Assembly: GCA_001780775.1 (NCBI GenBank)
Contig: MFIO01000008.1
Coordinates: 1 to 55,795, forward strand
Direction: 5' to 3'
Length of the DNA: 55,795 nt
Source of the DNA: Candidatus Giovannonibacteria bacterium RIFCSPLOWO2_12_FULL_43_11c
Lineage (GTDB): Bacteria > Patescibacteriota > Minisyncoccia > JACPKW01 > UBA11713
In this document: in pieces, positions 3,285 through 32,268 of the stretch
How the letters are laid out: the number at the start of each line of letters is the position of its first letter
Position numbering within the stretch: the stretch's first letter is position 1
The notes under the pieces: generated by a model
The model's database searches: none
Seen by the model: the letters and a program-made list of their open reading frames with translations, nothing else
What the model was told of the DNA's origin: nothing
Position numbers and translations under genes: made by a program

Positions 3285-3308
3285 TATCATTTAGAATACT
3301 GATTTTAT

Positions 3309-3908
3309 TTGGAAATTATGCAAAAACTTACACAAGAAAAAACATTAGTGCTGATAAAGCCAGACGGAATTAAAAGAGGGCTCGTCGGCGAAATTATCGG
3401 ACGCATCGAACAGCGCGGCTTGAAAGTAATCGCTCTTAAGATGATCCAGGCGACCGAGGAGCAAATAGACGGGCATTATCCAAAAGACGCGGCATGGATC
3501 CGCCGCCTCGGCGAAAAATCCTTAGGCACATATAGCAAATACGGGATCAATCCTGTTAAGGAATTGGGCACTAACGACGCGGACGAGATTGGCAAGATGG
3601 TCCGATCATGGATTATGGGGTTTATGACCTCCGGCCCCATAGTTAAAATGGTTGTAGAGGGAGTGCACGCGATCGATATGGTTAGGAAGCTCTGCGGAAA
3701 CACGCTTCCAAATATGGCGGATATGGGGACGCTCCGTGGAGATTACTCCGTTGATTCTCCGGCTTTGGCTAATTCCGAAAAGCGCGCGGTGCACAATATA
3801 ATTCACGCATCGGAAAATCCGGAGGAAGCTATGCACGAGCTTTCTTATTGGTTCACTCCAGACGAAATACACGACTACAAAAGAGCGGAGGAGGACATAA
3901 TGTTTTAA
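3309..3908 (+). CDS. ndk: nucleoside-diphosphate kinase (long form)
   Basis: LVLIKPDGIKRGLVGEIIGRIEQRGLKV and NIIHASEN (active-site His). The real start may be the ATG at 3318. Confidence 0.85.
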   Translation: MEIMQKLTQEKTLVLIKPDGIKRGLVGEIIGRIEQRGLKVIALKMIQATEEQIDGHYPKDAAWIRRLGEKSLGTYSKYGINPVKELGTNDADEIGKMVRSWIMGFMTSGPIVKMVVEGVHAIDMVRKLCGNTLPNMADMGTLRGDYSVDSPALANSEKRAVHNIIHASENPEEAMHELSYWFTPDEIHDYKRAEEDIMF

Positions 3909-4199
3909 CGCCCAATTGTTCAACAGTTTATCCACTTTTTTGGTACAACATATAAACATCTTTGTTTATGAAGGTTTGTTTTTTTGAACCTAAATAAGAC
4001 ACATTCTCTCTGGTCTTGGAACTTCCAGCGTATGAATAGGGGATTATACTGAAACTTAGGATATCGTCTTAATGCTACTACACTAAATAATTCCATCAAC
4101 TAATCCTTTGTGCGTCCTAGCCCGTGGGCAGGCGCCAAGGCGAATTTTGGAGAAAAAGTAGTCTAGCAAGGGCGATATCTTTGTGTTACAATTGGAAGA

Positions 4200-4616
4200 A
4201 TGCTGAATTTGACTGTATCCGGTAGATTAATTTTTGGTGTTCTCCTGGCGATTTTTCTAGTCCATGGATGGGCCACGCTGACTGCGGCCTATTTTTATTA
4301 TTGGTGGCTGGACATAGTTATGCATATTACAGGAGGGCTTTGGGTCGGGATAATCGCTATCTATTTCATAAAAAATAAAGACATTTCTCCGTTTATAGTT
4401 TTCTGGCTTGTTTTTGGTTCCGCCACGATTACCGGTCTTTTTTGGGAATTTTTTGAATTTGCGATGTCTCACCTTCCGGGTGAATGGAGTAAATATGGAT
4501 TCATTCAACAAGGCCTTGAAGACACGCTAAGCGATATCCTATCCGATCTTATTGGCGGAATTCTTGCATTTTCCCTTTTTAAAACAACTAGAAAAAATTA
4601 TAATGATAAGCAATGA
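4200..4616 (+). CDS. hypothetical membrane protein
   Basis: 138 aa with about 4 hydrophobic helices. ATGA overlap with the next gene. Confidence 0.4.
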   Translation: MLNLTVSGRLIFGVLLAIFLVHGWATLTAAYFYYWWLDIVMHITGGLWVGIIAIYFIKNKDISPFIVFWLVFGSATITGLFWEFFEFAMSHLPGEWSKYGFIQQGLEDTLSDILSDLIGGILAFSLFKTTRKNYNDKQ

Positions 4617-5959
4617 AGATTTCTTTTTACGGCGGATCGCAAGAAGTCACAGGGTCTTGTTTTTTATTTGACTCTGGCAGGACAAAAATTATAGTTGATT
4701 GCGGTCTTTTTCAGTGCCCAAGGTTTTGTGATCTAAGATCTAGGGATCCGTTTCCATTCGACCCTAAAGATATCAAAGCGCTTTTTGTAACGCACGCGCA
4801 TATTGACCATACTGGCAGAATCCCGAAGCTTGTTAAGGAAGGATTTTCCGGAAAAATTTATTCAACGCCGCCGACAAAAGAACTCGCTCTGCTCATGCTC
4901 GAGGACAGCCTAGGCGTAATGGAGAAAGAAGCAAAGCACCATGAAGAAGATTTAATGTTCGGGTCCGAGGATATAGCTTCAGCGTTCAAACTTTGGGAAG
5001 GGATCGAATACCATAAAATAATTGAAATCGGTGATTTAAAAATACGCCTGTTGGACTCTGGGCATATCCTAGGTTCGTCTATGGTGGAAATTAATATTAA
5101 AGGTAAAAAAATAGTTTTTACGGGGGATTTAGGAAATCCGCCGACGCCTCTTCTAAATGACCCGGAGGAAGTTAAGGACGCCTCCGTCTTACTGGTAGAA
5201 TCAACTTACGGAAATCGCATCCACGATGACAAAAAAGAGAGAAAATTGAGGTTGGAAAGAATTATTGAAGATATGATACACACAAAGGGCGTTTTAATGA
5301 TTCCGGCTTTCTCGCTTGAGCGTACCCAGGAATTACTTGCGGAAATAGATGATCTTCTCGAATCGGGGAGAGTGCCCAGGGTCCCTATTTTTCTGGATTC
5401 CCCCCTTGCCATAAAAGCAACTGCGGTATATAAAAAATACGAAAATTATTTTAACATCCAAGCGCATAGGAAAATAAAATCAGGAGATGATATTTTTCGG
5501 TTCCAGGGGCTTAAATTTACGATGACCACTGAGGAATCGAAGGCTATAAACGAAGTTAAGCCGCCAAAAATCATAATCGCGGGGTCCGGCATGTCTAACG
5601 GCGGAAGAATTTTACATCACGAGAAAAGATATCTTTCCGACCCCAATTCAACTTTGCTTCTTGTCGGATACCAAGCCGCCGGTTCTTTGGGCAGGATGCT
5701 CCAGGATCACGCAGGGGAAGTTACAATACATGGCGAGAAAATTTTAGTTCACGCCAAAGTGGAAACTTTGCAAGGATATTCTTCCCATCCGGATCGCGAG
5801 CAGTTAATGGAATTCATATCAAAAAGCAAAGATACTCTGGAAAAAGTATTTGTGATCACAGGCGAGCCGGCTTCAGCGCTTTTCTTGGTCCAGCGCGTCC
5901 GCGATTATTTAGGCATTTCCACGGAAGCTCCCCGATACGGAGAAACGAAAGAAATTTAG
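4613..5959 (+). CDS. MBL-fold / beta-CASP RNA-metabolising hydrolase
   Basis: 448 aa. Has the HAHIDHTGRIP motif, ESTYG, and a C-terminal HPDREQL typical of the beta-CASP family. Confidence 0.8.
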   Translation: MKISFYGGSQEVTGSCFLFDSGRTKIIVDCGLFQCPRFCDLRSRDPFPFDPKDIKALFVTHAHIDHTGRIPKLVKEGFSGKIYSTPPTKELALLMLEDSLGVMEKEAKHHEEDLMFGSEDIASAFKLWEGIEYHKIIEIGDLKIRLLDSGHILGSSMVEINIKGKKIVFTGDLGNPPTPLLNDPEEVKDASVLLVESTYGNRIHDDKKERKLRLERIIEDMIHTKGVLMIPAFSLERTQELLAEIDDLLESGRVPRVPIFLDSPLAIKATAVYKKYENYFNIQAHRKIKSGDDIFRFQGLKFTMTTEESKAINEVKPPKIIIAGSGMSNGGRILHHEKRYLSDPNSTLLLVGYQAAGSLGRMLQDHAGEVTIHGEKILVHAKVETLQGYSSHPDREQLMEFISKSKDTLEKVFVITGEPASALFLVQRVRDYLGISTEAPRYGETKEI

Positions 5960-16367: not shown

Positions 16368-18659
16368 ATGGAAACGATGGTTGAAAAAAAACCTAGGACA
16401 CTATCTCATATTGAACTTTCTCAAATTAGAAAACGAGACGGATCTCTGGTCCCATTTGATTTAGCTCGAATAAAAAATAAGGTCCTGTTAGCATTTGAAT
16501 CGACCAAAGAGGCTGGGGAGGAAGAAGCGAGGCTCGTGTCGTTTCGAGTGTATGACATGTTAAGGCAAATGAAATTGACCAACCCTCAATTTATTCCGTC
16601 GGTTGAACAAATTCAGGATTTGGTGGAAAAGGAACTCATCTTGGATAAATTTGCCGTCACGGCGAAATCTTACATCTTATACCGTGAAAAACATGCAGAG
16701 ATGCGCAGAGAAGCCGGACCCGTGTCAGAACGCTTGCGGACTCTCGCCAAAGAAAGTAAAAAATATTTCAAAAATCCTCTTGCGGAATTCATATACTACC
16801 GTTCATATGCTCGCTGGGTAGAGAGTGAGGGCAGAAGAGAAACGTGGATAGAGACAGTAGATCGATATATGAGCTTTATGAAAGAAAAATTAGCTGACGC
16901 GTTGACGGAGACAGAGTATTCCGAGGTCCGCGAGGCCATTTTAAAGCACGAAGCCATGCCTTCTATGCGCCTTTTACAATTTGCAGGTCCTGCTGCGATG
17001 GCGACTAACGTTTGCGCGTATAATTGCTCGTTTATCGCCCCCCGATCGTTTCAGGACTTTGCCGAAATTATGTATATTTCTATGTGCGGAACTGGAGTTG
17101 GGTGGTCTGTTGAGAGCGAAAATATCCAGTCTTTACCGCAAGTCAAGCGACAGACTAGCAAAAAGGTCCCTACCTATGTCATTCCGGATAGCAAAGAGGG
17201 ATGGGCGGACGCTTTTGCCTTTGGGCTCAAGACTTGGTTTGAAGGGGACGATGTGGATTTCGATTTCTCAAAGCTTCGCCCAGCTGGCGCGCGCCTCAAG
17301 ACAATGGGCGGGAAAAGCTCTGGTCCGGAGCCTCTTAGAAACCTTCTGGAATTTACACGTGAGAGGATTTTAAATAGACAAGGAAGGCGACTTTCAAATA
17401 TCGACGCTCACGATATCATCTGCAAAATTGGCGATTGCGTAGTATCCGGCGGAGTGAGGCGGAGCGCTATGATTTCTCTCTCTGATTTGGATGATGCGGA
17501 GATCCGCGATTCAAAGAAAGGGCAGTTTTATATGAACGACCCACAGCGCAGTTTGGCGAACAACTCCGCTGTATATTGGCAGAGGCCGACAACGAAAGAA
17601 TTTCTGGACGAGTGGACAGCTTTGATTAAAAGCGGAAGCGGGGAGCGCGGAATTTTTAACCGCGGAGGGCTTGCAAAAACTCTGCCAGAGCGCAGGCTCG
17701 AACAATTCGGCGGTAATCATCCTTCTTGGGGGACGAATCCCTGCGGAGAGATAGTTTTGCAGTCGAAGCAATTTTGCAACCTGACGGAGATTGTAGCGAG
17801 GGAAGAAGATACGAAAGAGACTTTAATGAAAAAAGCAAAAATAGCGACTATCCTCGGCACATACCAATCCACACTGACTTATTTTCCATATCTTTCGAAG
17901 GAGTGGCAGGAAAATTGCGAAAAGGAGCGATTGCTTGGAGTTTCTATAACCGGACAGTGGGATTCCCCGGCCGTTCGCGATGAGGCTTTTTTGAGAAAGC
18001 TTAAAGAATATATTGTTAAAACCAATAAAGAATATGCTGCTAAATTTGGCGTCAATCAATCAACCTGCACGACATGCGTTAAGCCTTCGGGAACAGTCTC
18101 CCAGCTTGTGGATTGTTCTTCGGGAATGCACGCTAGGCATTCGCAATACTATATCAGGCGCGTGCGCATCTCAGTGACCGACTCCCTTTTCAAGATGCTA
18201 AAGGACCAAGGTGTCCCGTTTTATCCGGAAGTCGGTGAGACTATGGAGAGTGCGGCGACATTTGTCTTAGAATTCCCCGTTAAGGCGCCGGAAGGCAAAA
18301 TTTTCCGCGACAATCTTACCGCGATGGATCAACTGAAGCATTGGAAGATGGTAAAAGAAGCCTATACCGAACATAATCCGTCAGTTACGGTTTCCGTTGG
18401 GGATGACGAATGGGTGGCTGTTGCGAATTGGCTTTATGAAAATTGGGATATCGTCGGCGGGCTTTCTTTTCTGCCCCGAGCCAATCACGTCTACCGCTTG
18501 GCGCCCTATGAAGCCATTAAAAAAGAAGAATATGATGAGCGCGCCAAGAAACTCGAACACATTGATTTTTCCAAAATCTACACATACGAAATCGAAGACG
18601 AGACGGAAGTTAAGCGCGAGCTCGCCTGCGTTGCCGGAGTTTGCGAAATAGAATTATAA
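16368..18659 (+). CDS. nrdJ: adenosylcobalamin-dependent (class II) ribonucleotide reductase with N-terminal ATP-cone
   Basis: 763 aa. Has an ATP-cone-like N-terminus (IRKRDGSLVPFDLARIKNKV) and the catalytic NPCGEIVLQSKQFCNLTEI. Confidence 0.9.
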   Translation: METMVEKKPRTLSHIELSQIRKRDGSLVPFDLARIKNKVLLAFESTKEAGEEEARLVSFRVYDMLRQMKLTNPQFIPSVEQIQDLVEKELILDKFAVTAKSYILYREKHAEMRREAGPVSERLRTLAKESKKYFKNPLAEFIYYRSYARWVESEGRRETWIETVDRYMSFMKEKLADALTETEYSEVREAILKHEAMPSMRLLQFAGPAAMATNVCAYNCSFIAPRSFQDFAEIMYISMCGTGVGWSVESENIQSLPQVKRQTSKKVPTYVIPDSKEGWADAFAFGLKTWFEGDDVDFDFSKLRPAGARLKTMGGKSSGPEPLRNLLEFTRERILNRQGRRLSNIDAHDIICKIGDCVVSGGVRRSAMISLSDLDDAEIRDSKKGQFYMNDPQRSLANNSAVYWQRPTTKEFLDEWTALIKSGSGERGIFNRGGLAKTLPERRLEQFGGNHPSWGTNPCGEIVLQSKQFCNLTEIVAREEDTKETLMKKAKIATILGTYQSTLTYFPYLSKEWQENCEKERLLGVSITGQWDSPAVRDEAFLRKLKEYIVKTNKEYAAKFGVNQSTCTTCVKPSGTVSQLVDCSSGMHARHSQYYIRRVRISVTDSLFKMLKDQGVPFYPEVGETMESAATFVLEFPVKAPEGKIFRDNLTAMDQLKHWKMVKEAYTEHNPSVTVSVGDDEWVAVANWLYENWDIVGGLSFLPRANHVYRLAPYEAIKKEEYDERAKKLEHIDFSKIYTYEIEDETEVKRELACVAGVCEIEL

Positions 18660-19202
18660 ATGTACTGGACTGGGAAAGGAGACGACGGTCGGACGAAATT
18701 ATTTAACTCGCCCGCCGGTTGCCGCATTCCAAAAAGCTCGCGGATAGTCGAAGCGCTGGGCTCGCTCGACGAGGTAAATTCTTATTTGGGGCTAGCGAAA
18801 GCACTCTCGAGGGAACAGAAATTGGATTTAGAATCTTTCGTAAATTTCTTGCAGGAGCAGCTTTTTATATTGCAAGCCGAACTCGCTGGAGCCGAGAAGA
18901 CTGTCTCCCGGGAATCGCTCGAGAAAATGGAATCCCAGCTCCACGTTTTTTCCGAAAAAATTCCCCCGATTAAATCTTTTTCCATCCCCGGCGGGACAGT
19001 TCTCTCCGCGCATTTTGACATCGCGCGGACGATGGCGAGGCGAGCAGAGAGGGAAGTAGTCGCGTTACGCGATGATAAAGAAAAAGCGCTTGGCGAGAAA
19101 AGCTACGCATTTTTGAATCGCCTATCTAGCGCGTGTTTCATTTTGGCGAGATATGTAAATTCGGTCCAAGGCGTCTCCGAAACCCCACCGAGTTATAACT
19201 AG
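18660..19202 (+). CDS. ATP:cob(I)alamin adenosyltransferase, PduO type
   Basis: 180 aa. Has the N-terminal YWTGKGDDGRTKL motif and an LQAELA helix. Starts 1 nt after the nrdJ stop. Confidence 0.85.
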   Translation: MYWTGKGDDGRTKLFNSPAGCRIPKSSRIVEALGSLDEVNSYLGLAKALSREQKLDLESFVNFLQEQLFILQAELAGAEKTVSRESLEKMESQLHVFSEKIPPIKSFSIPGGTVLSAHFDIARTMARRAEREVVALRDDKEKALGEKSYAFLNRLSSACFILARYVNSVQGVSETPPSYN

Positions 19203-20088: not shown

Positions 20089-20400
20089 TGGAGATGGCGG
20101 GAGTTGAACCCGCGTCGGGAAAGCTTTTGAGGGATGGTTGACAAGCTTAAGTGAAATCCTGAATTGACTCTCAGGAAAAAAGTTTTCTCGCTTATGACAC
20201 CCGCGATTCTTTAGCGAGAATCAAGGACGGATGGCCTAGATCCGAAGATCCAAGCGTTGCCATTAAGCTACTGCCAAAGCAGGCTCTCTGGTTCCAAATA
20301 AGTTTGCACTTATTATTTCCCATGGGAGATATTTAGCTCCGCCATGGCGGAGCGCCTGAACATCATCTCAAAGTTCTTCCCCTCGAGGCCTATCATCCCC
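20089..20400 (-). ncRNA. ssrA: tmRNA (SsrA), about 312 nt, CCA not encoded
   Basis: On the minus strand, the 5' GGGGATG pairs with the 3' CATCTCC (G3-U pair), followed by discriminator A. The T-arm is GCGGGTTCAACTCCCGC. Candidate tag ORF: GCA AAC TTA TTT GGA ACC AGA GAG CCT GCT TTG GCA GTA GCT TAA (ANLFGTREPALAVA). It lies directly downstream of smpB. Confidence 0.85.
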
Positions 20401-20836
20401 GTAGGTTGCGGCCGACTTCGCGTTCGATGTCACGTTTTTTTATTTTGTCGCGTTTTTCAAATTTTTTCTTTCCGCGGACAATCGCGATCTCGATCTTGAT
20501 TCGGCCGCTTGAAGTATACACCTTTGTCGGGATGATTGTCAATCCGCGTTCTTCGGCGCGTCCAGTCAGATGCGCAATTTCTTTTTTATGGAGGAGAAGT
20601 TTTCGAGTTCGCTCGCGTTCGTAGCCCTCAGGAGTGTTATTGGGCTGATAGGGAGGAATATCCATACCTACGATAAATGCCTCGTCCCCGCGGATTAAAA
20701 CGCGAGCCCCGGAAATATTTCCGTTTTTATTTTTGAGCGATTTTACCTCAAGCCCAAGCAACGATAAACCAGCCTCGTATGTCTCGAGTATTTCGTAGTT
20801 AAAATATACTTTTTTGTTTTCTATTAAAGCGGGCAT
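20393..20836 (-). CDS. smpB: SsrA-binding protein SmpB
   Basis: KVYFNYEILETYEAGLSLLGLEVKSLK... Confidence 0.95.
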   Translation of the reverse strand: MPALIENKKVYFNYEILETYEAGLSLLGLEVKSLKNKNGNISGARVLIRGDEAFIVGMDIPPYQPNNTPEGYERERTRKLLLHKKEIAHLTGRAEERGLTIIPTKVYTSSGRIKIEIAIVRGKKKFEKRDKIKKRDIEREVGRNLRG

Positions 20837-22342: not shown

Positions 22343-23125
22343 CTAGAGAATAATTTTTTCTGGCGCTATTTTGATATTCAAAAGATCCTTCGCAAACTTT
22401 GAAAATTTCTCGGGGTCGCCAGTGGTGATATAGCGCCTTAAGCCATTACTCCCAATGCGTTTTTTTATTTCAAGGTGGCGGGATAAATAATTTTCTAGCG
22501 ACACGGGAATTACTGAAGGAGAATCAAATATTTGGGCATCGGGCATTTCGCTTTGAATTATATTCTTGATAAGCGGGTAATGCGTGCAACCGAGAATGAT
22601 GTTTTTGATATTTTGTTTTTTAAACGGGTCGAGATATCTCCTTAAGGCTTCTTTCATAGCGCTATGATATATCATGCCAGCCTCAATTAATGGAACTAAT
22701 TTCGGAGCGGCCACTTGAAAAATTTTGGACATCGGATGTCCATATTTTTTGAGTTCGCGAAGATAAGCTCCGGATTCAACCGTAGCTTGAGTTGCAAGAA
22801 TGCCGATGGTTCCTTCAAGTGTCGCAACTTTTTTCGCAATAGGAATCAAAACCCCTAAGACTTTTTTATCGGGCAGAGCGTGCTGAATTTTTCGAAGCGC
22901 TTGCGAGGAGGCCGTGTTGCAGGCAAGAATTATTAACTCGCAGCCGTTTTTAAATAGCCAATCAACGGCTTGGCGCGTAAATTCGTAGATTTCTTGCGGC
23001 TCGCGCGATCCGTATGGGGTGCGGGCATTATCCCCGAAATATATAAAATCGTATTTCGGGAATTTTTCCGCGAGCGGCTTAAAAACCGTAAGCCCACCAT
23101 ATCCCGAATCAAAAACCCCGATCAT
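22343..23125 (-). CDS. murI: glutamate racemase
   Basis: GVFDSGYGGLTV, ILACNTAS, LGCTHYP. Confidence 0.9.
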   Translation of the reverse strand: MIGVFDSGYGGLTVFKPLAEKFPKYDFIYFGDNARTPYGSREPQEIYEFTRQAVDWLFKNGCELIILACNTASSQALRKIQHALPDKKVLGVLIPIAKKVATLEGTIGILATQATVESGAYLRELKKYGHPMSKIFQVAAPKLVPLIEAGMIYHSAMKEALRRYLDPFKKQNIKNIILGCTHYPLIKNIIQSEMPDAQIFDSPSVIPVSLENYLSRHLEIKKRIGSNGLRRYITTGDPEKFSKFAKDLLNIKIAPEKIIL

Positions 23126-23156: not shown

Positions 23157-26100
23157 ATGATTATGGCCGATGAGAAAGGTCCAATGTATGAAAGCGTTTC
23201 TCCTCGATCCGAAGAGGAGATTCTTCGTTTTTGGAAAGAAAATAAAATATTTGAGAAGTCTTTAGAAAATCGCCAAAAGGCGAAAACTTTTGTCTTTTTT
23301 GAGGGGCCGCCTTACGCGAACGGCCTTCCCGGAATCCACCACGTAGAATCCAGATCGTTCAAAGACATCATTTTACGCTACAAAACCATGCGCGGATTTT
23401 TCGTGCCAAGGCGCGCCGGATGGGATACGCATGGACTTCCGACAGAAATGGCAGTTGAGAAAGCACTTGGGATAAAATCCAAAAAAGAAATTGAGGAAAA
23501 GATAGGCGTTGAAAAATTTGTCGAGGAGGCGAAGAAAAATGTTTTCACATTTATAGACGCTTGGGAGAAATTAACTGATCGCATGGCTTATTGGCTCGAT
23601 TTGAAAAATGCCTATGTGACCATGACCAACGACTATATAGAATCTCTTTGGGCCGTCATCTCAAAAATTTCCGAGAAAAAATTGCTTTATGAAGATTATA
23701 AAGTTCTTCCGTGGTGCCCGCGCTGCGGAACATCGCTTTCTTCGCACGAGTTGGCGCAGGGGTACCAGAAAGTAAAAGAAAATTCGATTTATGTTAAGTT
23801 CCAACTTGAGGGCGATAAATCGCAAAATCAGCGGGTAAGTTTTTTAGTCTGGACGACAACCCCTTGGACGCTTCCGGGGAATGTCGCACTCGCTATCAAT
23901 CCGAAAATTGATTACGTGACAGTAGAGCGCTCTGGGAACCCGGATGAGTGGCTGATTTTGGCAGAGGCACGTTTGGACGTGGTTGAAGGAGAGTATAAAA
24001 TTATCAATCGCGAAAAAGGCGCGGCGCTTGTTGGGACGAAATATAAAGCTTTATATTCTAATTCTTCTGCAACGGAAAATAGTTATCGCGTTATCGCAGC
24101 CAGTTTTGTGGGAGCGGAGGACGGCTCGGGCATAGTTCATATAGCGCCTGCATTTGGGGGAGATGACTTGGCGGTTGGCAAAAAGGAAAAGTTGCCTACG
24201 CTCGTGACTGTATCAGAAGAGGGAAAAATGAAAACTCCTGGCGCAGTATGGGATGGAAAATTTATTAAAGATGCCGACTTGCTTATAATTGAAGATTTAA
24301 AAAAACGTTTGCTTTTATTCAAAATCGAGCCATATGAACACGATTATCCTTTTTGCTGGCGGTGCGGCACGGCTTTGATGTACTACGCGAAGACTTCATG
24401 GTTTTTCAAGACTACGGCCGTCCGCGACCATATGCTAAGAGAGAACGCCAAAATCGATTGGCACCCGGAATATTTGCGGGACGGCCGTTTCGGTAGTTGG
24501 CTCAAGGAAAATGTCGATTGGGGAATTTCTCGCGAGCGCTATTGGGGAACGCCGTTACCGGTATGGCGGTGCGATCAATGCGAGAAGATTAAGGTAGCAG
24601 GTTCGCTCAAAGAATTAGACAATCTCGATCTGCATCCAACTGAATTGATTGTGATGCGGCATGGCGAGGTTCCGCACAATATTAAGGACACTACCAATCC
24701 AGTTGATCCGGAAAAAGATGAAAAAGAGACTTTAACAGAGAAGGGCAAGGCAGATGTGAGAGAGGCTGCCAAAAAATTAAAGAAAGAAAAGATTAATTTG
24801 ATTTTTTCTTCCCCTTCGCATCGAGCGAGGGAAACCGCAAGTATTATTGCCGAAGAGCTTGGCTTGCCGGAATCAGTAATCGCCGTCGTACCCGAACTTT
24901 ATGATGTTCTTGTCGGCGGATTTGAAGGCGTTCCGATTAATGAATATGAAAAAGCTTTCTCGAGTTTTGAGGCGCATTTTACGGAAAAACCGAAAGGCGC
25001 TGAAAATTTTAGGGAGATTCGCTCAAGGATGATTAAAGCAGTGATCAAATTAAGGCGCAATTACGCAGGCAAAAAGATTTTGATAATAAGCCACGGGCAT
25101 CCGACATGGATTTTGATGGCGGCGCTTGAAAGTTTTGACGAAAAAGATTATCTGAAGTCGCCGTATTTGAACCCTGGGGAGTTTAAAAAAATTAATTTGC
25201 ACAACTGGCCGTATAATTCGGCGGGCGAACTTGATTTACATAAGCCATATATTGATGAAATAAAATTGAAATGTGAAAAATGTGCGGGCGAGATGGCGCG
25301 CGTGAAAGAGGTTATGGATGTCTGGTTTGACTCCGGCGCCATGCCGTTTGCGTCGCAGTGTTTTGGAAGTTCGACTTCCAAGGGGAAGTCGAACTTCCTC
25401 TATCCGGCCGAATATATTGCTGAAGCTATCGATCAGACCCGCGGGTGGTTTTATACGCTTCTCTCCGTATCGGCGCTATTGGGATTTGAGTCATCATACA
25501 AACGCGTTTTATCGCTTGGCTTGGTGCTTGATGGAAAAGGCGAGAAAATGTCGAAATCCAAAGGAAATGTCGTTGATCCGGAGACTCTTATGGAAAAATA
25601 CGGAGCAGACGCGGTGCGCTGGTATTTCTATACTATCAATCAGCCTTGGGACGACAAGCTTTTTCGCGAGAAAGACATCCAAGATGCCCAGCGCCGCTTT
25701 CTTATGATTCTATGGAATTCGTATCTTTATTGGCGCACGTACAGGGAAGTTCGACTTCCTATTGGAAGTCGAACTTCTAAGCCGAAACTCGTAATCAATA
25801 AGTGGCTTTTGGCGAAGTGGAATAAAATTTTATCAGAAGTTTCTGAAAATCTTGAAAAATATGATATCGTCTCTGCGGCGAGAAAGTTGGAAAATTTTGT
25901 CGTTGAAGATTTATCGCACTGGTATATCAGGCGGATCCGCGAGCATATGAAGCATGAAAAATCTGACGCGGCAAAAGAATGTTCCGCCACGCTCGGCTTC
26001 GTTCTTTTAGAGCTATCAAAAACATTAGCACCTTTTACGCCATTTATCTCCGAAGGAATTTATCGCGGAATTAGCGGAGAGAAAGAAAGCGTTCATCTTG

Positions 26101-26660
26101 AGGATTTCCCCGCCTTCGCCAAGGCTTCGGCGAGCAAGCCTGAAAAGAAATTAATAGAAGAAATGGAGAAAACGCGCGAGATAGTTTCAAGAGGCCTTGA
26201 GGCGCGGCAAAAGGCAGGAATTAAAATTCGCCAACCTCTTTCAGAGTTGAAAATTAAAAATAAACTTGATAACGAATTACTAGAACTAATAAAAGGCGAG
26301 GTCAACGTTAAAAAAGTTTCGGTCGCGAAAGATTTGAAAGAGGAAGTCGAGCTTGATACGGAAATTACTAATGAGCTTCAAGAAGAGGGGCTAGTCCGCG
26401 AATTTATTCGGGCTGTGCAGGATTTCAGGAAGGAGTTGAAATTAACTCCGCAGGAGAAAGTGGAGTTGGCGGTCAAATCTTCGAAAGAGTTTGAAAAAAT
26501 TCTAAAAGAGCATAAATCTTTAATAGAGAAAGAAATAAATATTTCCAATCTTTTTTTCGGAGATTTAGGCGATTCGCGCACAAAGGAAATCTTGATTGAT
26601 AAAACTAAAGCCGAGATTGGAATCAATCATACTCACCATATGAAAATCGAAAATGAATAG
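23157..26660 (+). CDS. ileS: isoleucine--tRNA ligase with an inserted histidine-phosphatase domain
   Basis: 1167 aa. Has PYANGLPGIHH (HIGH-like), KMSKSKGN, DQTRGWFY and a CP1 editing region. An extra RHG...SHG domain sits at about 24633..25226. Confidence 0.95.
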   Translation: MIMADEKGPMYESVSPRSEEEILRFWKENKIFEKSLENRQKAKTFVFFEGPPYANGLPGIHHVESRSFKDIILRYKTMRGFFVPRRAGWDTHGLPTEMAVEKALGIKSKKEIEEKIGVEKFVEEAKKNVFTFIDAWEKLTDRMAYWLDLKNAYVTMTNDYIESLWAVISKISEKKLLYEDYKVLPWCPRCGTSLSSHELAQGYQKVKENSIYVKFQLEGDKSQNQRVSFLVWTTTPWTLPGNVALAINPKIDYVTVERSGNPDEWLILAEARLDVVEGEYKIINREKGAALVGTKYKALYSNSSATENSYRVIAASFVGAEDGSGIVHIAPAFGGDDLAVGKKEKLPTLVTVSEEGKMKTPGAVWDGKFIKDADLLIIEDLKKRLLLFKIEPYEHDYPFCWRCGTALMYYAKTSWFFKTTAVRDHMLRENAKIDWHPEYLRDGRFGSWLKENVDWGISRERYWGTPLPVWRCDQCEKIKVAGSLKELDNLDLHPTELIVMRHGEVPHNIKDTTNPVDPEKDEKETLTEKGKADVREAAKKLKKEKINLIFSSPSHRARETASIIAEELGLPESVIAVVPELYDVLVGGFEGVPINEYEKAFSSFEAHFTEKPKGAENFREIRSRMIKAVIKLRRNYAGKKILIISHGHPTWILMAALESFDEKDYLKSPYLNPGEFKKINLHNWPYNSAGELDLHKPYIDEIKLKCEKCAGEMARVKEVMDVWFDSGAMPFASQCFGSSTSKGKSNFLYPAEYIAEAIDQTRGWFYTLLSVSALLGFESSYKRVLSLGLVLDGKGEKMSKSKGNVVDPETLMEKYGADAVRWYFYTINQPWDDKLFREKDIQDAQRRFLMILWNSYLYWRTYREVRLPIGSRTSKPKLVINKWLLAKWNKILSEVSENLEKYDIVSAARKLENFVVEDLSHWYIRRIREHMKHEKSDAAKECSATLGFVLLELSKTLAPFTPFISEGIYRGISGEKESVHLEDFPAFAKASASKPEKKLIEEMEKTREIVSRGLEARQKAGIKIRQPLSELKIKNKLDNELLELIKGEVNVKKVSVAKDLKEEVELDTEITNELQEEGLVREFIRAVQDFRKELKLTPQEKVELAVKSSKEFEKILKEHKSLIEKEINISNLFFGDLGDSRTKEILIDKTKAEIGINHTHHMKIENE
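25365..25398. repeat. 34-nt perfect palindrome inside ileS (family member 2)
   Basis: GGAAGTTCGACTTCC-AAGG-GGAAGTCGAACTTCC, translated as GSSTSKGKSNF. Confidence 0.8.
25745..25778. repeat. 34-nt palindrome inside ileS (family member 3)
   Basis: GGAAGTTCGACTTCC-TATT-GGAAGTCGAACTTCT, translated as (R)EVRLPIGSRTS. Confidence 0.8.
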
Positions 26661-26797: not shown

Positions 26798-28585
26798 ATG
26801 GAGACTAGGAAGTGTCAGAACTGTCATAACGATTTCACAATCGAACCGGAGGATTTTAAGTTTTATGAAAAAATATCTGTACCTCCGCCGACCTGGTGCC
26901 CGGAATGTCGGGCTATGCGCCGACTGCAATTTAGAAACTTAAGGCAACCTTATAAGCGCGTATGCGCCGCGACAGGGAAGGATATTTTTACTCTCATGCC
27001 TCCCGAAGCGCCGATGCCGGTGTATAGTGGTGACTACTGGAGAAGTGATGCATGGGATCCGCTCGCATATGGCAGAGATTATGATTTCACACAGCCATTT
27101 TTCGAGCAGATAAAAGATTTATTTAACGCTGTTCCATGGGCTCCCATGTGGGATTTTGAAAAAACAAATAGTGATTATAGTATTTCTGCCTGGGTGAAGA
27201 ATTGTTATATGTGTTTTGATACCGGTTTTGTAGAAGATAGTGCCTATGCGGTTGCCCTACACCACAGCAAGCAATGTATCGATGTAATCAACTGCGAAAA
27301 TTGCGAGCTCTGCTACTACTGTATAAATACAAACAAATCCTATAAAACATTTTTCTCAAGGAACTGCACTTCTTGTATCGAGGTATGGTTTAGTCAGGAT
27401 TGCATCGGGTGCACAAGTTGTTTTGGGTGCACGGGATTGAGAAATAAATCGTACTATATTTTCAACAAACCATATACAAAAGAGGAATATAAAAAGAAGT
27501 TAGAAGAGATGAAACTCGATTCATTCTCTGGAATAGAAAAAGCTTTCGGGGTTGTAATGTCTGAATGGAAGAAATATCCCGTAAAGTATCAGCATAGCGT
27601 TCAAGCAAACGGGTGTACGGGTGATTACATTTATAATTCTGCAAAAATTCGCAATAGTTTTTTTGTGGGTAATTCCGAAAATTGTGCATACTCGCAAAGT
27701 ATTATCTACGGACCGATAAAAGATTGCATTGATATTTCTTCCACTGGCTTGAATGCGGAACTTGATTACGAAATAGGTTGTTCTGGGGATGCGCTATACA
27801 GAACTTCATTTGCTTCTGAATGCGGCGTATTAACCGATTGCCAGTATGTTTTCAATTGTAAGCAAGACAGTAACCTATTTGGGTGTGTTGGCGTTCGGAA
27901 CAAAAGTTATTGCGTCCTAAACAAGCAATACACGAAAGATGAATATGAAAATCTTGTATCGCGAATCCGGAAACATATGGATGAGATGCCTTATATTGAT
28001 AAAAAAGGAAGGAAATATAAATATGGGGAATTTTTTCCGCCCGATGTGAGTCCTTTTGGGTATAATGACACGCAGGCGCAGGAATATTTTCCGTTAACTA
28101 AAGAAGGGGCAGAGAGCTTTGGATATAGTTGGCGCGTGCCAGACAAGCGCAATTATTCTATCACGAAGAGTTCCAAAGATATGCCGGATGCCATTTCTGA
28201 TACTGACGACTCAATACTAAACGAGGTTATCCAATGCATGCATGATGAGAAAGATAGCCACTCGGTATTGTGCGGATATAATTGTGCTACCGCATTCCTG
28301 ATTACTCCGCAGGAACTAAAATTTTATCGCCAGCTGAATTTGCCGCTCCCAAGATTATGTTTTAATTGTAGACATTGGAAGCGTGTTGCCTGGAGAAATT
28401 TACTAAAGTTATATAAGAGACAATGCATGTGCCTTTCGACAGGCTCAAGGCAAGCGACTTATCAAAATACTGCTACTCATGAGCATGGAGAAAATCCCTG
28501 CCCTAACGAATTTGAGACTACCTATGTGCCTGATCGCCCGGAAATAGTTTATTGCGAAGCTTGTTACAATAAAGAAGTCGCATGA
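26798..28585 (+). CDS. Cys-rich protein with N- and C-terminal zinc-ribbon modules (paralogue 1)
   Basis: 595 aa. Has CQNC...FTIEPEDFKFYEKISVPPPTWCPECR at the N-terminus, a related FLITPQELKFYRQLNLPLPRLCFNCRH module at the C-terminus, and a periodic Cys-rich core. A paralogue lies at 45030..46820. Confidence 0.6.
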   Translation: METRKCQNCHNDFTIEPEDFKFYEKISVPPPTWCPECRAMRRLQFRNLRQPYKRVCAATGKDIFTLMPPEAPMPVYSGDYWRSDAWDPLAYGRDYDFTQPFFEQIKDLFNAVPWAPMWDFEKTNSDYSISAWVKNCYMCFDTGFVEDSAYAVALHHSKQCIDVINCENCELCYYCINTNKSYKTFFSRNCTSCIEVWFSQDCIGCTSCFGCTGLRNKSYYIFNKPYTKEEYKKKLEEMKLDSFSGIEKAFGVVMSEWKKYPVKYQHSVQANGCTGDYIYNSAKIRNSFFVGNSENCAYSQSIIYGPIKDCIDISSTGLNAELDYEIGCSGDALYRTSFASECGVLTDCQYVFNCKQDSNLFGCVGVRNKSYCVLNKQYTKDEYENLVSRIRKHMDEMPYIDKKGRKYKYGEFFPPDVSPFGYNDTQAQEYFPLTKEGAESFGYSWRVPDKRNYSITKSSKDMPDAISDTDDSILNEVIQCMHDEKDSHSVLCGYNCATAFLITPQELKFYRQLNLPLPRLCFNCRHWKRVAWRNLLKLYKRQCMCLSTGSRQATYQNTATHEHGENPCPNEFETTYVPDRPEIVYCEACYNKEVA

Positions 28586-29089: not shown

Positions 29090-30961
29090 GTGTCAGAGCA
29101 TTTAGAAGAACTTAAAAAACGCCTTTATAAGTCAGGAGAGTCTTTTGACGCCAGATTGCGCCGTCCGGAATTGACCCCACAGCCTCAAAAGTCTCCTTCG
29201 GTTTGGCAGGAAGAAAATAGGCCAATTTTAATGGAGCCAAGGCGGAGCGGAAAAATATGGTGGATTTTAGGAGCGGTTTTTTTTATAGCCGCAATAGGGG
29301 CGGGCACTTATTATTATTTAAGCTACAATTCAATATCTAACAAAAGAATAGACATCAGTATTTCCGGTCCGGATGGAGCTATCGGCGGGGAGCGGGTTAC
29401 TTGGGAAGTAGCCATAACTAACAATAATAATAAAGCACTCTCGGGCGTAGCACTAGTTTTTGAATACCCCGCAGGTTCGAGAGTTTTAGACGAAGGGGTT
29501 AAAGGACTAAGAGCTAGGAAAATTTTGGAAAATATCGGGGCAGGGCAAACGGTGCGCCTTTCTTTTAGCGCCTTTGCCTACGGTTTCGAAAATGAAACCA
29601 AAGATGTCCGTGCGACGCTCGAATATACTCCGTTCGGATCAAGCGCTGCTTTTTCAAAAGAAGAGCTTGGGAAAATAACAATAACGCGCTCGCCGGTCGG
29701 AGTTTCCTTCGAGCTTCCACGTGAAATTCGCGCCGGACAGGAAATAGAAATCAAAGTTAATTATGTATCCAATTCATCAAGCGTTCTAGAAAATCTCATT
29801 TTAGAGCTCGCAATTCCTTCGGGATTTGTTTTCAAGAGCGCGGATCCCAAGCCGGATACAGGCGGAAAGACATGGTTCTTATCGCCGCTAAACCCTAGCG
29901 AGAAAAGAATAATAACGGTCAGGGGAATTTTGAGCGGAGGCGAGCTCGAGGAGAAAAGTTTTAAGGCTTCAGTGGGAATTAAGGATTCTTCCAACGGATT
30001 TAATATTTACGGTCAGGGGGTTGCTACCATCGAGCTAAAAAGACCATTTTTGGAAGTTGACGCGAAAATAAACGGGCAAGATACTTATTCCGCGCGCCCC
30101 GGAGAGTCGGTTTACGTCGAGCTTATGTATAAAAATAATTTGACTGTTCCAGTGGAGAACGCTATCATTGAAGGCGTTTTGTCCGGGAGGATATATGATG
30201 AAAGCAAAACCAAAGTTCGCTTTGGAACTTATAGGTCAATCGATAAGAGAATAATATGGAATTCGTCCTTGAATAATTCTCTTGGCAGGATTGATCCTGG
30301 GGAGTCCGGGACTGTGAGTTTCGAGCTGAACATCTTGGAAAAAATTCCCGTAAAGACAACCACGGACAAAGACTTCAATATATCAATGCATTTTGAAATC
30401 AGGCCGGGAGAAAAACCCCCTGGATATGAAGGAGCCGATTTAAAAGGGGAAGATAGTTTTGACATGAAATTGATTTCGCGCCTTCAACTTGTTCGAAGGG
30501 GATTTTATTACTCGAAAACTATGCCAAATACCGGCCCGATTCCTGCTAAGGTCGGACGAGAGACGACATTTACCGTAATACTTTCTCTGACAAATTCGAC
30601 GAGCGATCTTGACGGCGTAAAAGTTCGCGCGTTCCTCCCGCCATACATGGGTTGGAAAAATAAAATTATCTCGGCCGAGCCTGTTACCTATGATCCTAAT
30701 ACGGGCGAGATAATATGGGATGTCGGAGATATGAAGGCCGGAATCGGTTATACCTCTCCCGCGAAAGAAATAACTTTCCAAATCGGGCTTATTCCGTCCG
30801 CGAACCAAGCCGGGCAGACTCCGGAACTCGTAGCCAATATTACGGCCGAGGGGCATGATAAATTTACTGATTCAAATCTTCAGGTTTCCGTTCCATCGCT
30901 CACACTGAAACTCGAATCCGACCCGAAGATTGATTTGAGGCAAACTACGGTGATAAAGTGA
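29090..30961 (+). CDS. hypothetical membrane-anchored protein with repeated beta-rich (DUF11/CARDB-like) modules
   Basis: 623 aa with a GTG start and one TM helix near residue 55. Repeated segments resemble ...GETVTWEV.ITNN.... Confidence 0.4.
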   Translation: MSEHLEELKKRLYKSGESFDARLRRPELTPQPQKSPSVWQEENRPILMEPRRSGKIWWILGAVFFIAAIGAGTYYYLSYNSISNKRIDISISGPDGAIGGERVTWEVAITNNNNKALSGVALVFEYPAGSRVLDEGVKGLRARKILENIGAGQTVRLSFSAFAYGFENETKDVRATLEYTPFGSSAAFSKEELGKITITRSPVGVSFELPREIRAGQEIEIKVNYVSNSSSVLENLILELAIPSGFVFKSADPKPDTGGKTWFLSPLNPSEKRIITVRGILSGGELEEKSFKASVGIKDSSNGFNIYGQGVATIELKRPFLEVDAKINGQDTYSARPGESVYVELMYKNNLTVPVENAIIEGVLSGRIYDESKTKVRFGTYRSIDKRIIWNSSLNNSLGRIDPGESGTVSFELNILEKIPVKTTTDKDFNISMHFEIRPGEKPPGYEGADLKGEDSFDMKLISRLQLVRRGFYYSKTMPNTGPIPAKVGRETTFTVILSLTNSTSDLDGVKVRAFLPPYMGWKNKIISAEPVTYDPNTGEIIWDVGDMKAGIGYTSPAKEITFQIGLIPSANQAGQTPELVANITAEGHDKFTDSNLQVSVPSLTLKLESDPKIDLRQTTVIK

Positions 30962-32268
30962 AGAACATGCCCGATTTAGATAAAATTGTCTCGCTTGCCA
31001 AAAGGCGCGGTTTTATTTTTCCAAGTTTTGAAATTTATGGCGGTTCGGCAGGCTTTTTTGATTATGGACCACATGGTCTTACGCTCAAAAACAATGTCAA
31101 ACAAATATGGTGGAAACAATTTGTATCAGGGCGTGAGGATGTGTATGGAATTGATTCGGTAATAGTGACAAAAAAGGAAGTTTTTGAAGCAAGCGGCCAT
31201 GCTCGCGGTTTTGCAGATATGTTGACGGAGTGCGAGAAATGCCAGCGCCGGTTTCGAGTTGATCACCTTGCGGATACGAAGAAATGTCCAGAGTGTGGAG
31301 GGAAGCTAGGCGAAGCGCGTCAATTCTACATGATGCTAGAAACTCATATTGGAGCTGCTGAAGATGAAGCATCGCTTGCATATCTTCGTCCGGAAACGGC
31401 GCAAGGGATTTTTACAAATTTCAAGAACATTGTTGATTCATTTCATCCGAGCCTTCCCTTTGGGATCGCACAGATAGGCAAAGCTTTTCGCAATGAAATA
31501 GCACCACGAGATTTTCTCTTCCGTCTTCGCGAGATTGAGCAGATGGAGGTTGAATACTTCATAAAGCCTGGCGATTGGAAAGAATCATTTGAGATGTGGC
31601 GAAAAGAAATGCAAAAGTTCATTGCTAGTCTCGGCATTGATACAAATAAAATTTTCGAACTTGAAATTGAGGAGGCAGATCGCGCGCACTATTCCAAACG
31701 CACAATTGATTTTGAATTTGATTTTCCGTTTGGTAAAAAAGAATTATATGGGCTCGCGTATAGGACAGATTATGATCTTTCCGCGCACGAAAAGGCATCG
31801 GGAGCGGATCTGCGCTATACCGATCCGGAATCCGGCGATAAATTCATTCCACATGTGATTGAACCTTCTTTAGGTATTGATAGAACTATCCTCGCTATAC
31901 TTTGTTCGGCTTATGTGGAAGATGAATTAGGCAAGGAGAAACGAGTTTTCCTAAAATTAAAACCTCAAATAGCACCCGTTAAAGTTGCCGTGTTCCCGCT
32001 CGTTTCAAACAAAGAAAATATAGTTTCAAAGGCCCGCGAGCTTTATAAAAATCTTAAAGAAAAAATTTCTGGAGTTGCCTGGGACGACAACGGTAATATC
32101 GGCAAGCGCTATCGCAGGCAAGACGAAATTGGAACCCCATGGTGCGTTACGATTGACTATCAAACACTCGAAGATAAAACTGTCACGGTGCGCGATAGAG
32201 ACACTGGGGAGCAGATCAGGAAAAAAGAAAAAGAACTCGAGAAATATTTTTCTGACAAACTTTCATGA
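30958..32268 (+). CDS. glyQS: glycine--tRNA ligase (dimeric class II type)
   Basis: RRGFIFPSFEIYGGSAGFFDYGPHG. Has class II motifs and a C-terminal anticodon-binding domain. Confidence 0.9.
   Translation: MKNMPDLDKIVSLAKRRGFIFPSFEIYGGSAGFFDYGPHGLTLKNNVKQIWWKQFVSGREDVYGIDSVIVTKKEVFEASGHARGFADMLTECEKCQRRFRVDHLADTKKCPECGGKLGEARQFYMMLETHIGAAEDEASLAYLRPETAQGIFTNFKNIVDSFHPSLPFGIAQIGKAFRNEIAPRDFLFRLREIEQMEVEYFIKPGDWKESFEMWRKEMQKFIASLGIDTNKIFELEIEEADRAHYSKRTIDFEFDFPFGKKELYGLAYRTDYDLSAHEKASGADLRYTDPESGDKFIPHVIEPSLGIDRTILAILCSAYVEDELGKEKRVFLKLKPQIAPVKVAVFPLVSNKENIVSKARELYKNLKEKISGVAWDDNGNIGKRYRRQDEIGTPWCVTIDYQTLEDKTVTVRDRDTGEQIRKKEKELEKYFSDKLS

Follow-up and report, generated by a model that had tools for sequence, protein, structure and literature searches.

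The stretch of DNA analysed here, hereafter the window, comprises positions 1 to 55,795 of contig MFIO01000008.1 (assembly GCA_001780775.1) of Candidatus Giovannonibacteria bacterium RIFCSPLOWO2_12_FULL_43_11c, read on the forward strand. It carries a gene, which we call ileS::HP, in which a complete, apparently active histidine phosphatase (HP) is nested within the catalytic domain of a type-2 isoleucyl-tRNA synthetase (IleRS). A first-pass annotation, made from the sequence alone, had proposed a PF00300 phosphatase domain lying in frame inside this synthetase, and Pfam and NCBIfam matches bore this out. The features of the gene are given below, with all motif coordinates checked by translation; CP denotes the connective polypeptides of the synthetase. 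Residue counts refer to the 120 best database homologues (48-100% identity, 1050-1217 aa), in 119 of which PF00300 and IleRS domains occur together.

23157..26660, forward strand: ileS::HP, type-2 IleRS with nested histidine phosphatase; one uninterrupted open reading frame (ORF) of 1167 aa
23331..23342, forward strand: class-I signature in the variant form G-I-H-H replacing HxGH (aa 59-62), with the first and third positions swapped, as read from the sequence
23850..23870, forward strand: editing motif WTTTPWT in CP1 (aa 232-238)
24570..24581, forward strand: first CxxC of the CP3 zinc hairpin (C472-D-Q-C475); C472 and C475 in 120/120 homologues
24582..24638, forward strand: N-side of the CP3 hairpin and N-junction (aa 476-494, EKIKVAGSLKELDNLDLHP), placed by junction alignment against insert-less IleRSs
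24639..25196, forward strand: histidine-phosphatase domain (His_Phos_1, PhoE-like; PF00300), aa 495-680, about 186 aa
24657..24665, forward strand: RHG motif R501-H502-G503, with H502 as the predicted nucleophilic histidine; R and H in 119/119, G in 118/119
24822..24824, forward strand: R556, second arginine of the phosphate pocket; 119/119
24903..24905, forward strand: D583, predicted general acid; the column holds E in 65 and D in 54 of 119 and is always acidic
25002..25028, forward strand: 'GES...R' motif, E616...R624, typical of PhoE/CobC-type members; E in 118/119, R in 118/119
25092..25094, forward strand: H646, second catalytic histidine; 119/119
25197..25232, forward strand: linker, aa 681-692 (LHNWPYNSAGEL), by which the chain returns to the CP3 hairpin; P685 in 116/119
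25233..25283, forward strand: C-side of the CP3 hairpin, DLHKPYID and second CxxC (C706-E-K-C709, at nt 25272-25283)
25545..25559, forward strand: KMSKS loop (aa 797-801); KMSKS in 117/120

The host is a complete and apparently functional type-2 IleRS that retains its variant signature, KMSKS loop, editing motifs, and anticodon-binding and type-2 C-terminal domains. The ORF scored 868.4 bits against the TIGR00392 ileS model (cutoff 621.4), in two parts covering residues 16-491 and about 677 to the protein end, and Pfam recognized PF00133, PF08264 and PF19302 in addition to PF00300. The last of the host families (PF19302, DUF5915) occupies residues 1037-1157, as in the C-terminal organization of type-2 enzymes. 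The closest sequence match in the PDB was Priestia megaterium IleRS2 (8c8w, E 1e-236), and the phmmer alignment to it delimits the insert by stopping at residue 490 and restarting at 677. A full-length AlphaFold (AF2) model had a mean predicted local distance difference test score (pLDDT) of 88.6 and a predicted template modelling score of 0.83, with pLDDT 91-97 in the insert region; its top Foldseek matches were 8c8v (IleRS2, TM to target 0.82) and Thermus thermophilus 1ile (TM to target 0.92), not IleRS1. In the editing domain, to which PDB chains align over residues 202-398, WTTTPWT, H328 and D337 are invariant across a 61-sequence alignment. The KMSKS and anticodon-binding parts follow the insert normally, as the first-pass annotation had stated. 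These intact motifs, together with the finding that 23157..26660 is the sole ileS detected within the window, suggest that ileS::HP would activate isoleucine and charge tRNAIle.

The swapped signature has a consequence of its own. The GxHH form, present in 109/120 homologues, is functional or tolerated only in IleRS2 and is a mupirocin hyper-resistance motif (PMC10485003), so this particular clade of Patescibacteria is predicted to be mupirocin hyper-resistant throughout. The acetyltransferase-bearing type of IleRS was considered and rejected for the window protein, which scored 306.6 bits against NF040702 (ileS_w_GNAT; cutoff 1999) and has no acetyltransferase domain by Pfam. A 129-aa ORF at 25318-25707 on the forward strand lies in another frame wholly inside ileS and is most likely a shadow ORF rather than a gene.

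The insert lies in the CP3 subdomain, which links CP2 to the second half of the Rossmann fold. At the N-junction, insert-less IleRSs read GSIEEL followed directly by DLHRP. The first-pass annotation had described the two CxxC halves of a zinc knuckle pushed apart by about 190 extra residues, and comparison with relatives agrees: the two pairs are 34-39 residues apart in insert-less relatives versus 199-251 in insert-bearing ones. On the C-side, D693, H695, P697, D700, C706 and C709 are invariant or nearly so, with C706 and C709 in 120/120 homologues. The base of the hairpin adjoins the WG-PLP and DVWFDSG active-site elements, and the hairpin itself projects from the catalytic domain. CP3 holds a zinc motif in T. 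thermophilus IleRS and adopts other folds in the Candida and Staphylococcus enzymes (PMC7191050), and a paper on the yeast IleRS-tRNA complex describes no tRNA contact for it (PMC11685878). Since its fold and zinc content vary between IleRSs, the phosphatase sits at the tip of a variable surface hairpin. In one insert-less IleRS (L116, group B of the tree described below), about 33 extra residues (CQIGKNHLIAKQLPTVHTQQGAKRLVPKSKIKNQKDC) separate the two cysteines of the first CxxC, a further indication that insertions are tolerated in the hairpin.

A linker motif, P-[YH]-N-x-x-G-E-L, is common to both insert-bearing lineages and is absent from insert-less IleRSs and from free-standing copies of the phosphatase. 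The idea that the linker is a duplication fossil of the IleRS N-terminus, expected if the fusion arose by tandem duplication and deletion, was unsupported, with a mean best BLOSUM62 score of 2.36 versus 3.12 for shuffled linkers. No GC shift occurs at the junctions, across which composition is uniform. Insertion as an intein or mobile element was also rejected, as PF00300 is the only family above the Pfam threshold in the 198-aa insert and free cellular homologues exist in an operon.

The insert matched PF00300 (branch 1) over residues 497-668 (E 5.2e-29, 101.7 bits, cutoff 21.7), and the interval 24633-25226 searched alone gave E 2.9e-30. Modelled by itself, it reached a pLDDT of 96.1. Foldseek ranked PhoE 1h2e first (TM 0.78, probability 1.00), followed by PspA, GpgP and CobC; these short phosphatases of about 200 aa gave TM values of 0.72-0.79, whereas cofactor-dependent phosphoglycerate mutases (dPGMs) gave a TM to target of 0.60-0.65. 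A direct phmmer comparison with PhoE 1h2e returned E 4.5e-11. The insert is thus predicted, at high model confidence, to fold as a separate and autonomous PhoE-like domain.

The catalytic residues are far from degenerate, R501, H502, R556 and H646 being present in all 119 fusion homologues. RHG is likewise kept across all four lineage groups of the IleRS tree, free-standing copies included (R and H 100%, G 92-100%), and the catalytic residues are fixed in free-standing relatives too. N508 occurs in 102/119 (Q in 12) and T560 in 115/119, and the subfamily carries a signature, H-G-D-P-L-W, after the second histidine. Mean identity to the query was 38.5% for the phosphatase domain versus 61-64% for the catalytic parts of IleRS. 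A catalytic set that stays near-invariant while the domain diverges to about 35% identity argues that selection has maintained catalysis, or at least the integrity of the phosphate pocket. We conclude that the insert is a complete PhoE-like branch-1 histidine phosphatase that, judged by its sequence, is apparently active. The catalytic motifs listed in the first-pass annotation are intact, except that the Glu of 'VGGFEG' (E590) occurs in only 29/119; the conserved acid is D583, and the invariant 'GES...R' motif (E616, R624) is an addition to that list. Its label 'PGM-like' was right in placing the domain in branch 1 of the histidine phosphatases; the type is that of a short phosphatase, not a mutase.

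Several more specific identities were tried and rejected on NCBIfam scores. The best match was PRK07238, at 72.7 bits against a cutoff of 326. Alpha-ribazole phosphatase CobC fell short on both models (TIGR03162, 62.0 versus 162.9; PRK15004, 35.7 versus 250), as did phosphohistidine phosphatase SixA (TIGR00249, 35.9 versus 74.5), to which the N-terminal half alone aligns. Among the mutase models, dPGM_arch scored 67.7 against 225 and pgm_1 27.3 against 81.7, and the PRK gpmA models were all far under cutoff. The long dPGM form, of about 230-250 aa with a substrate-binding insert and a C-terminal tail, does not fit a domain of about 186 aa.

The fusion is real and is a clade-wide feature within a large section of the Patescibacteria, found in hundreds of independent assemblies and not unique to this genome. 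The identical protein is encoded on 5 contigs. Source names of the 120 homologues include Giovannoni-, Niyogi-, Taga- and Wildermuthbacteria and 'Patescibacteria group', and the proteins are annotated merely as 'isoleucine-tRNA ligase' or 'class I tRNA ligase family protein'. A junction-spanning query, run against one genome per GTDB species, recovered 399 relatives, the best 80 loci (80/80) covering the query from end to end; it added Taylor-, Campbell-, Nomura- and Kaiserbacteria, Paceibacterota and Minisyncoccia, with a complete 876-kb chromosome among them. When the insert alone was searched against 1.84 billion 50%-identity representatives, about 93 of the best 150 matches were IleRS fusions or fragments of them. 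Identity of the insert tracks identity of the IleRS core (Pearson 0.64, 6555 pairs), as expected under vertical co-inheritance.

Free-standing proteins of about 190 aa, belonging to the same subfamily and 30-38% identical to the insert, were also among the best representatives, and they indicate where the domain came from. In the first gene contexts that we inspected, the free HP gene lay directly downstream of argS in every informative case, with ileS next in several. Free-standing proteins used as seeds in a metagenome scan yielded 80 loci; 70 of them were assignable to one of two states. In the first, the gene order is smpB(-)-argS-HP-ileS-recO, with HP a separate ORF of 184-229 aa and an IleRS of 944-995 aa without insert. 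In the second, the order is smpB(-)-argS-ileS::HP-recO, with no free HP gene in that position. Free HP had argS as its immediate same-strand upstream neighbour in 48 of 57 informative loci (58 free-standing loci in all) and ileS as its immediate downstream neighbour in 42 of 47, mostly at a spacing of ≤60 nt and often of no more than a few nucleotides. For ileS::HP, argS lay ≤2.5 kb upstream in 62 of 69 informative genome loci. In most loci recO follows ileS, and the argS-HP-ileS packing persists between lineages that share only about 40% identity in the IleRS core. A free and an inserted copy were found together in none of 168 loci. Free copies are abundant as well: the best 120 matches of a profile search with them all carried PF00300 only, and their named sources were Patescibacteria or Parcubacteria. 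Comparative genomics thus shows that the phosphatase is not foreign to its host: the same domain is a free operon gene in relatives and nested in ileS elsewhere. It also shows that it is an ancient operon partner of argS and ileS, interchangeable between the free and nested forms.

The window holds the same block:

20393..20836, reverse strand: smpB; ORF found by tblastn with the SmpB of L083, 45% identity
20876..22342, forward strand: argS (ArgRS, 488 aa), the conserved upstream neighbour; Pfam DALR_1, tRNA-synt_1d and Arg_tRNA_synt_N
22343..23125, reverse strand: murI-like racemase between argS and ileS; PF01177; seen only in the window and its three closest relatives, L001-L003
28582..29070, forward strand: recO, the downstream end of the synteny block; PF11967

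Several observations on these and nearby genes stand in their own right. The window ArgRS is short and matches the catalytic-domain profile weakly (66 bits, versus 336 bits for the 557-aa ArgRS of L083), and two distinct ArgRS types occur upstream of ileS across the loci. In L083 itself, the insert-less IleRS beside a free HP gene is called as two ORFs (2682-5609, reverse strand; 412 and 554 aa), split after the editing domain, which could reflect a truly split gene, a frameshift or a sequencing error. JGI annotates one free copy (P0509, 195 aa) as 'isoleucyl-tRNA synthetase'. Directly downstream of ileS in the window is a 595-aa ORF (26798-28585, forward strand) that is very cysteine-rich, with many CxxC pairs and no Pfam match; in L002 and L003 the same position is taken by relatives with 43-48% identity. 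An ATP-cone-bearing, B12-dependent class II ribonucleotide reductase is encoded at 16368-19202 (forward strand), a few kb upstream of argS-ileS, with a PduO-type cobalamin adenosyltransferase after it. Assembly of the cobalamin nucleotide loop involves CobC-type histidine phosphatases, and no link to the insert is established. Further downstream, a class-II synthetase of 436 aa (tRNA-synt_2b plus HGTP anticodon domain; 30958-32268, forward strand) has a counterpart in the same place in L170, and its presence near argS and ileS makes the region a small aminoacyl-tRNA synthetase (aaRS) gene cluster.

The history of the two states was examined on a neighbour-joining (NJ) tree of the IleRS core, built from 113 complete genes and 860 columns with the phosphatase columns removed. 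Four groups were distinguished:

Group A: inserted, n=70, includes the window
Group B: free, n=9
Group C: inserted, n=21
Group D: free, n=13

B and C formed a clade in 95 of 100 bootstraps. A single-insertion model, in which all inserted IleRSs would group together, was rejected, their monophyly being recovered in only 3 of 100 NJ bootstraps, and the topology implies at least two state changes under any rooting; given NJ trees and loci gathered from biased seeds, such counts are minimum estimates. Groups A and C share the same insertion point. Inserts of group C are 57% and 52% identical to the free copies of B and D, respectively, versus 35% to the inserts of group A. Group A is fast-evolving, and saturation of the phosphatase-domain tree leaves two insertions indistinguishable from a single one with differential loss after it. 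An insert-less IleRS (P0070) with 62% core identity to that of the window is as close to it as other group-A members are, and its state is a probable secondary loss. At that locus (L170, 4449-5297), the place between argS and ileS that the free phosphatase gene holds in other genomes is taken by a reverse-transcriptase (RVT_1) gene, together with DUF5674 and small unknown ORFs.

The subfamily was also found attached to other proteins. A ValRS carries one copy (P0246/P0270) and a ValRS fragment four tandem copies (P0125); an IleRS has two tandem copies (P0157), and stand-alone two-domain proteins of 410-432 aa occur (P0208/P0256/P0262). At a second IleRS site, between the KMSKS region and the anticodon-binding domain, a copy is present in addition to the usual insert (P0183 and P0198, the latter with six members on contigs of up to 1.06 Mb). 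Rarely, ArgRS bears a C-terminal copy (3 clusters, P0221 and two more, one of them only 49% identical), and a C-terminal copy on TsaC/Sua5 was seen on a single 3.7-kb contig (P0185). The ValRS insert lies in another loop, after DTWFSSGLW...GWP, in the context pgk, enolase, two iPGM genes and then valS::HP, tyrS and argS. Neither ValRS::HP nor TsaC-HP is a read-through fusion with a neighbouring HP gene. The nearest relatives of the phosphatase domains in these carriers are IleRS inserts or free copies, at 42-47% identity. The ValRS, ArgRS, TsaC and second-site IleRS forms are independent captures of the same subfamily. The classified fusion partners are without exception tRNA-related, being enzymes of tRNA charging or modification that convert ATP to AMP and PPi.

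Some IleRSs combine the phosphatase with further modules. One such relative, on an 11.3-kb JGI contig (P0217), contains an IS200-like Y1 transposase domain (aa 340-461), the phosphatase (aa 680-854) and, on its C-terminal side, a GNAT acetyltransferase domain, so that a single synthetase holds three foreign modules; another (P0260) has a P-loop kinase-like module besides the phosphatase. The loop after DxWF(D/E/S)SG and before '(F/Y)P...DQTRGWF' accepts whole domains, a P-loop kinase-like module in P0260 (aa 735-905) and the phosphatase in P0270, a ValRS encoded at L169 8001-11423; the counterpart loop of the window protein, aa 741-745, has pLDDT <50. An attempt to type the P0260 module as a polynucleotide or nucleotide kinase, as a pointer to the class of substrate, gave only weak and mixed PDB matches (APS kinase, shikimate kinase, Pnkp1; E 0.02-0.05) and NCBIfam matches far under cutoffs.

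Compared with characterized enzymes, the insert resembles PhoE/YhfR of Geobacillus stearothermophilus (1h2e, 1ebb), PspA, GpgP (Rv2419c) and CobC in its fold of about 200 aa, RHG, second Arg, acid, GES...R and second His. It differs from the PhoE group in being nested in another enzyme, in using Asp as the acid in the window, in its own H-G-D-P-L-W signature and in falling under every equivalog cutoff. In most characterized branch-1 members the acidic proton donor is Glu. The host shares the scaffold and swapped signature of the GxHH IleRS2 enzymes (PMC10485003; 8c8w), none of which is reported with a CP3 phosphatase insert in that work or in a preprint (bioRxiv 10.64898/2026.02.03.703510). 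Among synthetases with additional enzymes, the MetRS of Mycoplasma penetrans carries an aminotransferase domain whose activity is independent of the synthetase and whose adaptive value is unclear (PMC7694997). Both cases join a complete metabolic enzyme domain to an aaRS of a genome-reduced bacterium; the MetRS domain, however, is an N-terminal appendage making the amino-acid substrate, whereas the phosphatase is nested in CP3, is not obviously connected with isoleucine supply and alternates with a free-standing gene of that same operon. The NF040702 family, IleRS with N-acetyltransferase, likewise shows that IleRS tolerates an extra catalytic domain, and P0217 has both GNAT and phosphatase; the window protein, in contrast, lacks GNAT, and no NCBIfam model exists for the phosphatase-bearing form. 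Mycobacterial RNase H/acid phosphatase (PRK07238, Rv2228c type) also joins a short histidine phosphatase to a nucleic-acid enzyme, but there the two enzymes are joined end to end rather than nested, with RNase HI in place of an aaRS. The CP1 editing domain of IleRS, ValRS and LeuRS is similar in that a whole catalytic domain is nested in a connective-polypeptide region while the host stays active; CP1 is universal, ancient and, as the receiver of the tRNA 3' end, mechanistically integrated, whereas the phosphatase is lineage-restricted and exists as a free gene in sister lineages.

The first-pass annotation knew of no aaRS carrying a phosphatase at this position, and our literature search agrees: the searchable full-text literature, including AARS Online (PMC11580382) and with subscription literature outside its scope, contains no description of a phosphatase in IleRS. 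As far as that literature goes, the architecture is undescribed and uncharacterized. The fusion sequences are public with precomputed Pfam hits, so that the architecture is visible in databases. The known kind to which it belongs is the synthetase with an accessory catalytic domain; what is new is the nested phosphatase variant, with an unusually clear evolutionary origin.

What might the phosphatase do? Its exclusive set of partners, the conserved tight operon and the repeated independent captures lead us to put functional coupling to tRNA charging at slightly better than an even chance. We give about even chances to the specific proposal that the phosphatase is a working partner of tRNA-charging enzymes and acts on a phosphorylated species of the charging cycle. 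According to this proposal, H502 would attack a phosphomonoester held by R501, R556 and H646, D583 would protonate the leaving group, and the phospho-histidine would then be hydrolysed. The insert would act as an autonomous module, leaving the chemistry of IleRS unchanged, and tethering to IleRS would replace operon-level co-expression and possibly also the basic surface of the free protein. Free copies are rich in basic residues (K+R 23%, D+E 11%), with a net charge of about +12 per 100 aa versus +2.5 for the IleRSs of the same genomes; the excess is gone in the inserted forms, and group-A inserts, that of the window included, are near neutral.

Two classes of substrate were considered about equally likely, and each is a tentative candidate. 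One is a terminal tRNA phosphate that blocks aminoacylation (3'-phosphate or pyrophosphate), in favour of which all partners bind tRNA and the charge excess is lost on insertion. The other is a nucleotide by-product, such as an AMP-type phosphomonoester; AMP and PPi are products of every partner, and relatives such as CobC and PhoE use nucleotide-like monoesters as substrates. A stronger form of the first is unlikely, namely that the enzyme is a tRNA-directed phosphatase, in which case it would be the first of the histidine phosphatases with a known action on RNA, removing terminal 3'(2')-phosphate or pyrophosphate from acceptor ends. Such ends would be those left by ribotoxins, by RNases that form cyclic phosphates or by toxSAS-type pyrophosphokinases, and neighbouring synthetases would then recharge the tRNAs. 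The free, very basic protein would find tRNA alone; once nested in IleRS, ValRS or ArgRS, the synthetase would supply tRNA binding. Such a role would explain capture only by tRNA-binding enzymes and the loss of charge after insertion.

A number of findings weigh against a role in tRNA charging. The insert reached no curated NCBIfam equivalog cutoff, and its substrate is not readable from sequence; its closest structures are all small-molecule enzymes, and we know of no histidine phosphatase that acts on RNA ends. The charge of the free copies is equalled by 10.8% of background ORFs in the same loci, a modest outlier in lysine-rich proteomes, and as evidence for RNA binding it was set aside, being real but modest after calibration. 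The domain sits on one of about 20 synthetases, so that tRNAIle would be the sole beneficiary of a tRNA role exerted in cis. Tandem arrays (x2, x4) and varied sites fit dosage or hitch-hiking better than precise geometry. No phosphatase gene was found within 14.8 kb at the syntenic locus of P0070, which also lacks the insert, so IleRS does not need the domain. Finally, the ArgRS, ValRS and TsaC fusions are rare and could partly reflect clustering of aaRS genes (argS is near valS::HP in L169).

Many of these points are shared by the most serious alternative, that a housekeeping PhoE-type small-molecule phosphatase was absorbed from the argS-ileS operon into a permissive loop, with no mechanistic link to aminoacylation. 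Fusion would then merely keep expression and stoichiometry in a compact genome. Consistent with this, CP3, whose fold and zinc content vary and for which no tRNA role has been described, is a permissive site, and the same loops take unrelated inserts, such as the P-loop module of P0260, while P0217 has IS200-like and GNAT domains in addition. Tandem copies suggest an effect of dosage, the domain evolves faster than the core and is missing from P0070, the closest structures are small-molecule phosphatases, and the M. penetrans MetRS-aminotransferase offers a precedent in which neutrality is not excludable (PMC7694997). The passenger reading is harder to reconcile with a set of classified partners (IleRS at two sites, ValRS, ArgRS, TsaC) of which every one is tRNA-linked and converts ATP to AMP and PPi, with ValRS::HP and TsaC-HP that are not read-through products, with an argS-HP-ileS packing kept across IleRS cores about 40% identical, and with at least two changes of state, to or from insertion, at one and the same site. 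We regard absorption as a passenger as possible, if rather unlikely.

The remaining explanations survive less well. A non-catalytic module, serving as a structural, dimerization or phosphate/tRNA-binding appendage, would fit a domain much less conserved than the IleRS core in which 54/119 sequences have Asp rather than the usual Glu as proton donor, but both histidines, both arginines, the acid and GES...R are essentially invariant in sequences about 35% identical, and we consider this improbable. Slightly less credible is self-protection, whereby the domain would undo phosphorylation with which HipA-type toxin kinases inhibit the synthetase, or would detoxify a phosphorylated class-I inhibitor. 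The histidine-phosphatase superfamily does include protein phosphatases (SixA, PGAM5, Sts-1), HipA-family kinases target aaRSs, the insert sits on the catalytic domain, and the GxHH hyper-resistance motif of the host suggests a history of chemical warfare directed at this synthetase; however, the SixA model scored only 35.9 of the 74.5 bits required, no kinase or toxin genes were seen in the conserved neighbourhood, and the free form would need several targets in trans.

Still more remote is glycolytic moonlighting, with the insert a cofactor-dependent phosphoglycerate mutase or other mutase of central metabolism. The 'PGM-like' label and the presence of dPGM_arch, a model of short archaeal dPGMs, among the top NCBIfam matches had raised this reading. 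Against it, dPGM scores are far under cutoffs, Foldseek favours short phosphatases, and the genome with ValRS::HP encodes two cofactor-independent mutases beside enolase and PGK. In addition, the acid D583 is only about 33 aa from the GES motif, a segment which, going by E. coli GpmA, we take to leave no room for the substrate-binding insert of dPGMs. An assembly or annotation artefact, such as a chimeric contig or two genes wrongly merged, might be suspected in a metagenome-type assembly but deserves virtually no credence given the identical protein on 5 contigs, hundreds of diverged versions (NCBI, JGI, ENA, Logan) with the same junctions across independent assemblies, an insert that tracks its core in identity and matches it in composition over the junctions, and two IleRS halves that are both needed for function and flank the insert in frame.

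Bacterial aaRSs with extra catalytic domains are rare and usually informative on hidden biology. In the present case an entire enzyme is lodged within the catalytic domain of an essential synthetase, and this holds over a very large uncultivated radiation, the ultra-small Patescibacteria; if the phosphatase is active, their IleRS would have three catalytic sites, for synthesis, editing and phosphate removal. The two states of the operon provide a natural experiment in how a neighbouring gene becomes an internal domain, and CP3 and the loop after DVWFDSG may serve as permissive insertion sites for engineering class-I synthetases. For metabolic reconstruction of Patescibacteria, a caution follows, since PF00300 matches inside ileS can be miscounted as phosphoglycerate mutase. 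Taken together, the operon, the nesting, the at least two switches of state and the independent captures point to a hitherto unstudied connection of a phosphatase with tRNA charging in these organisms.

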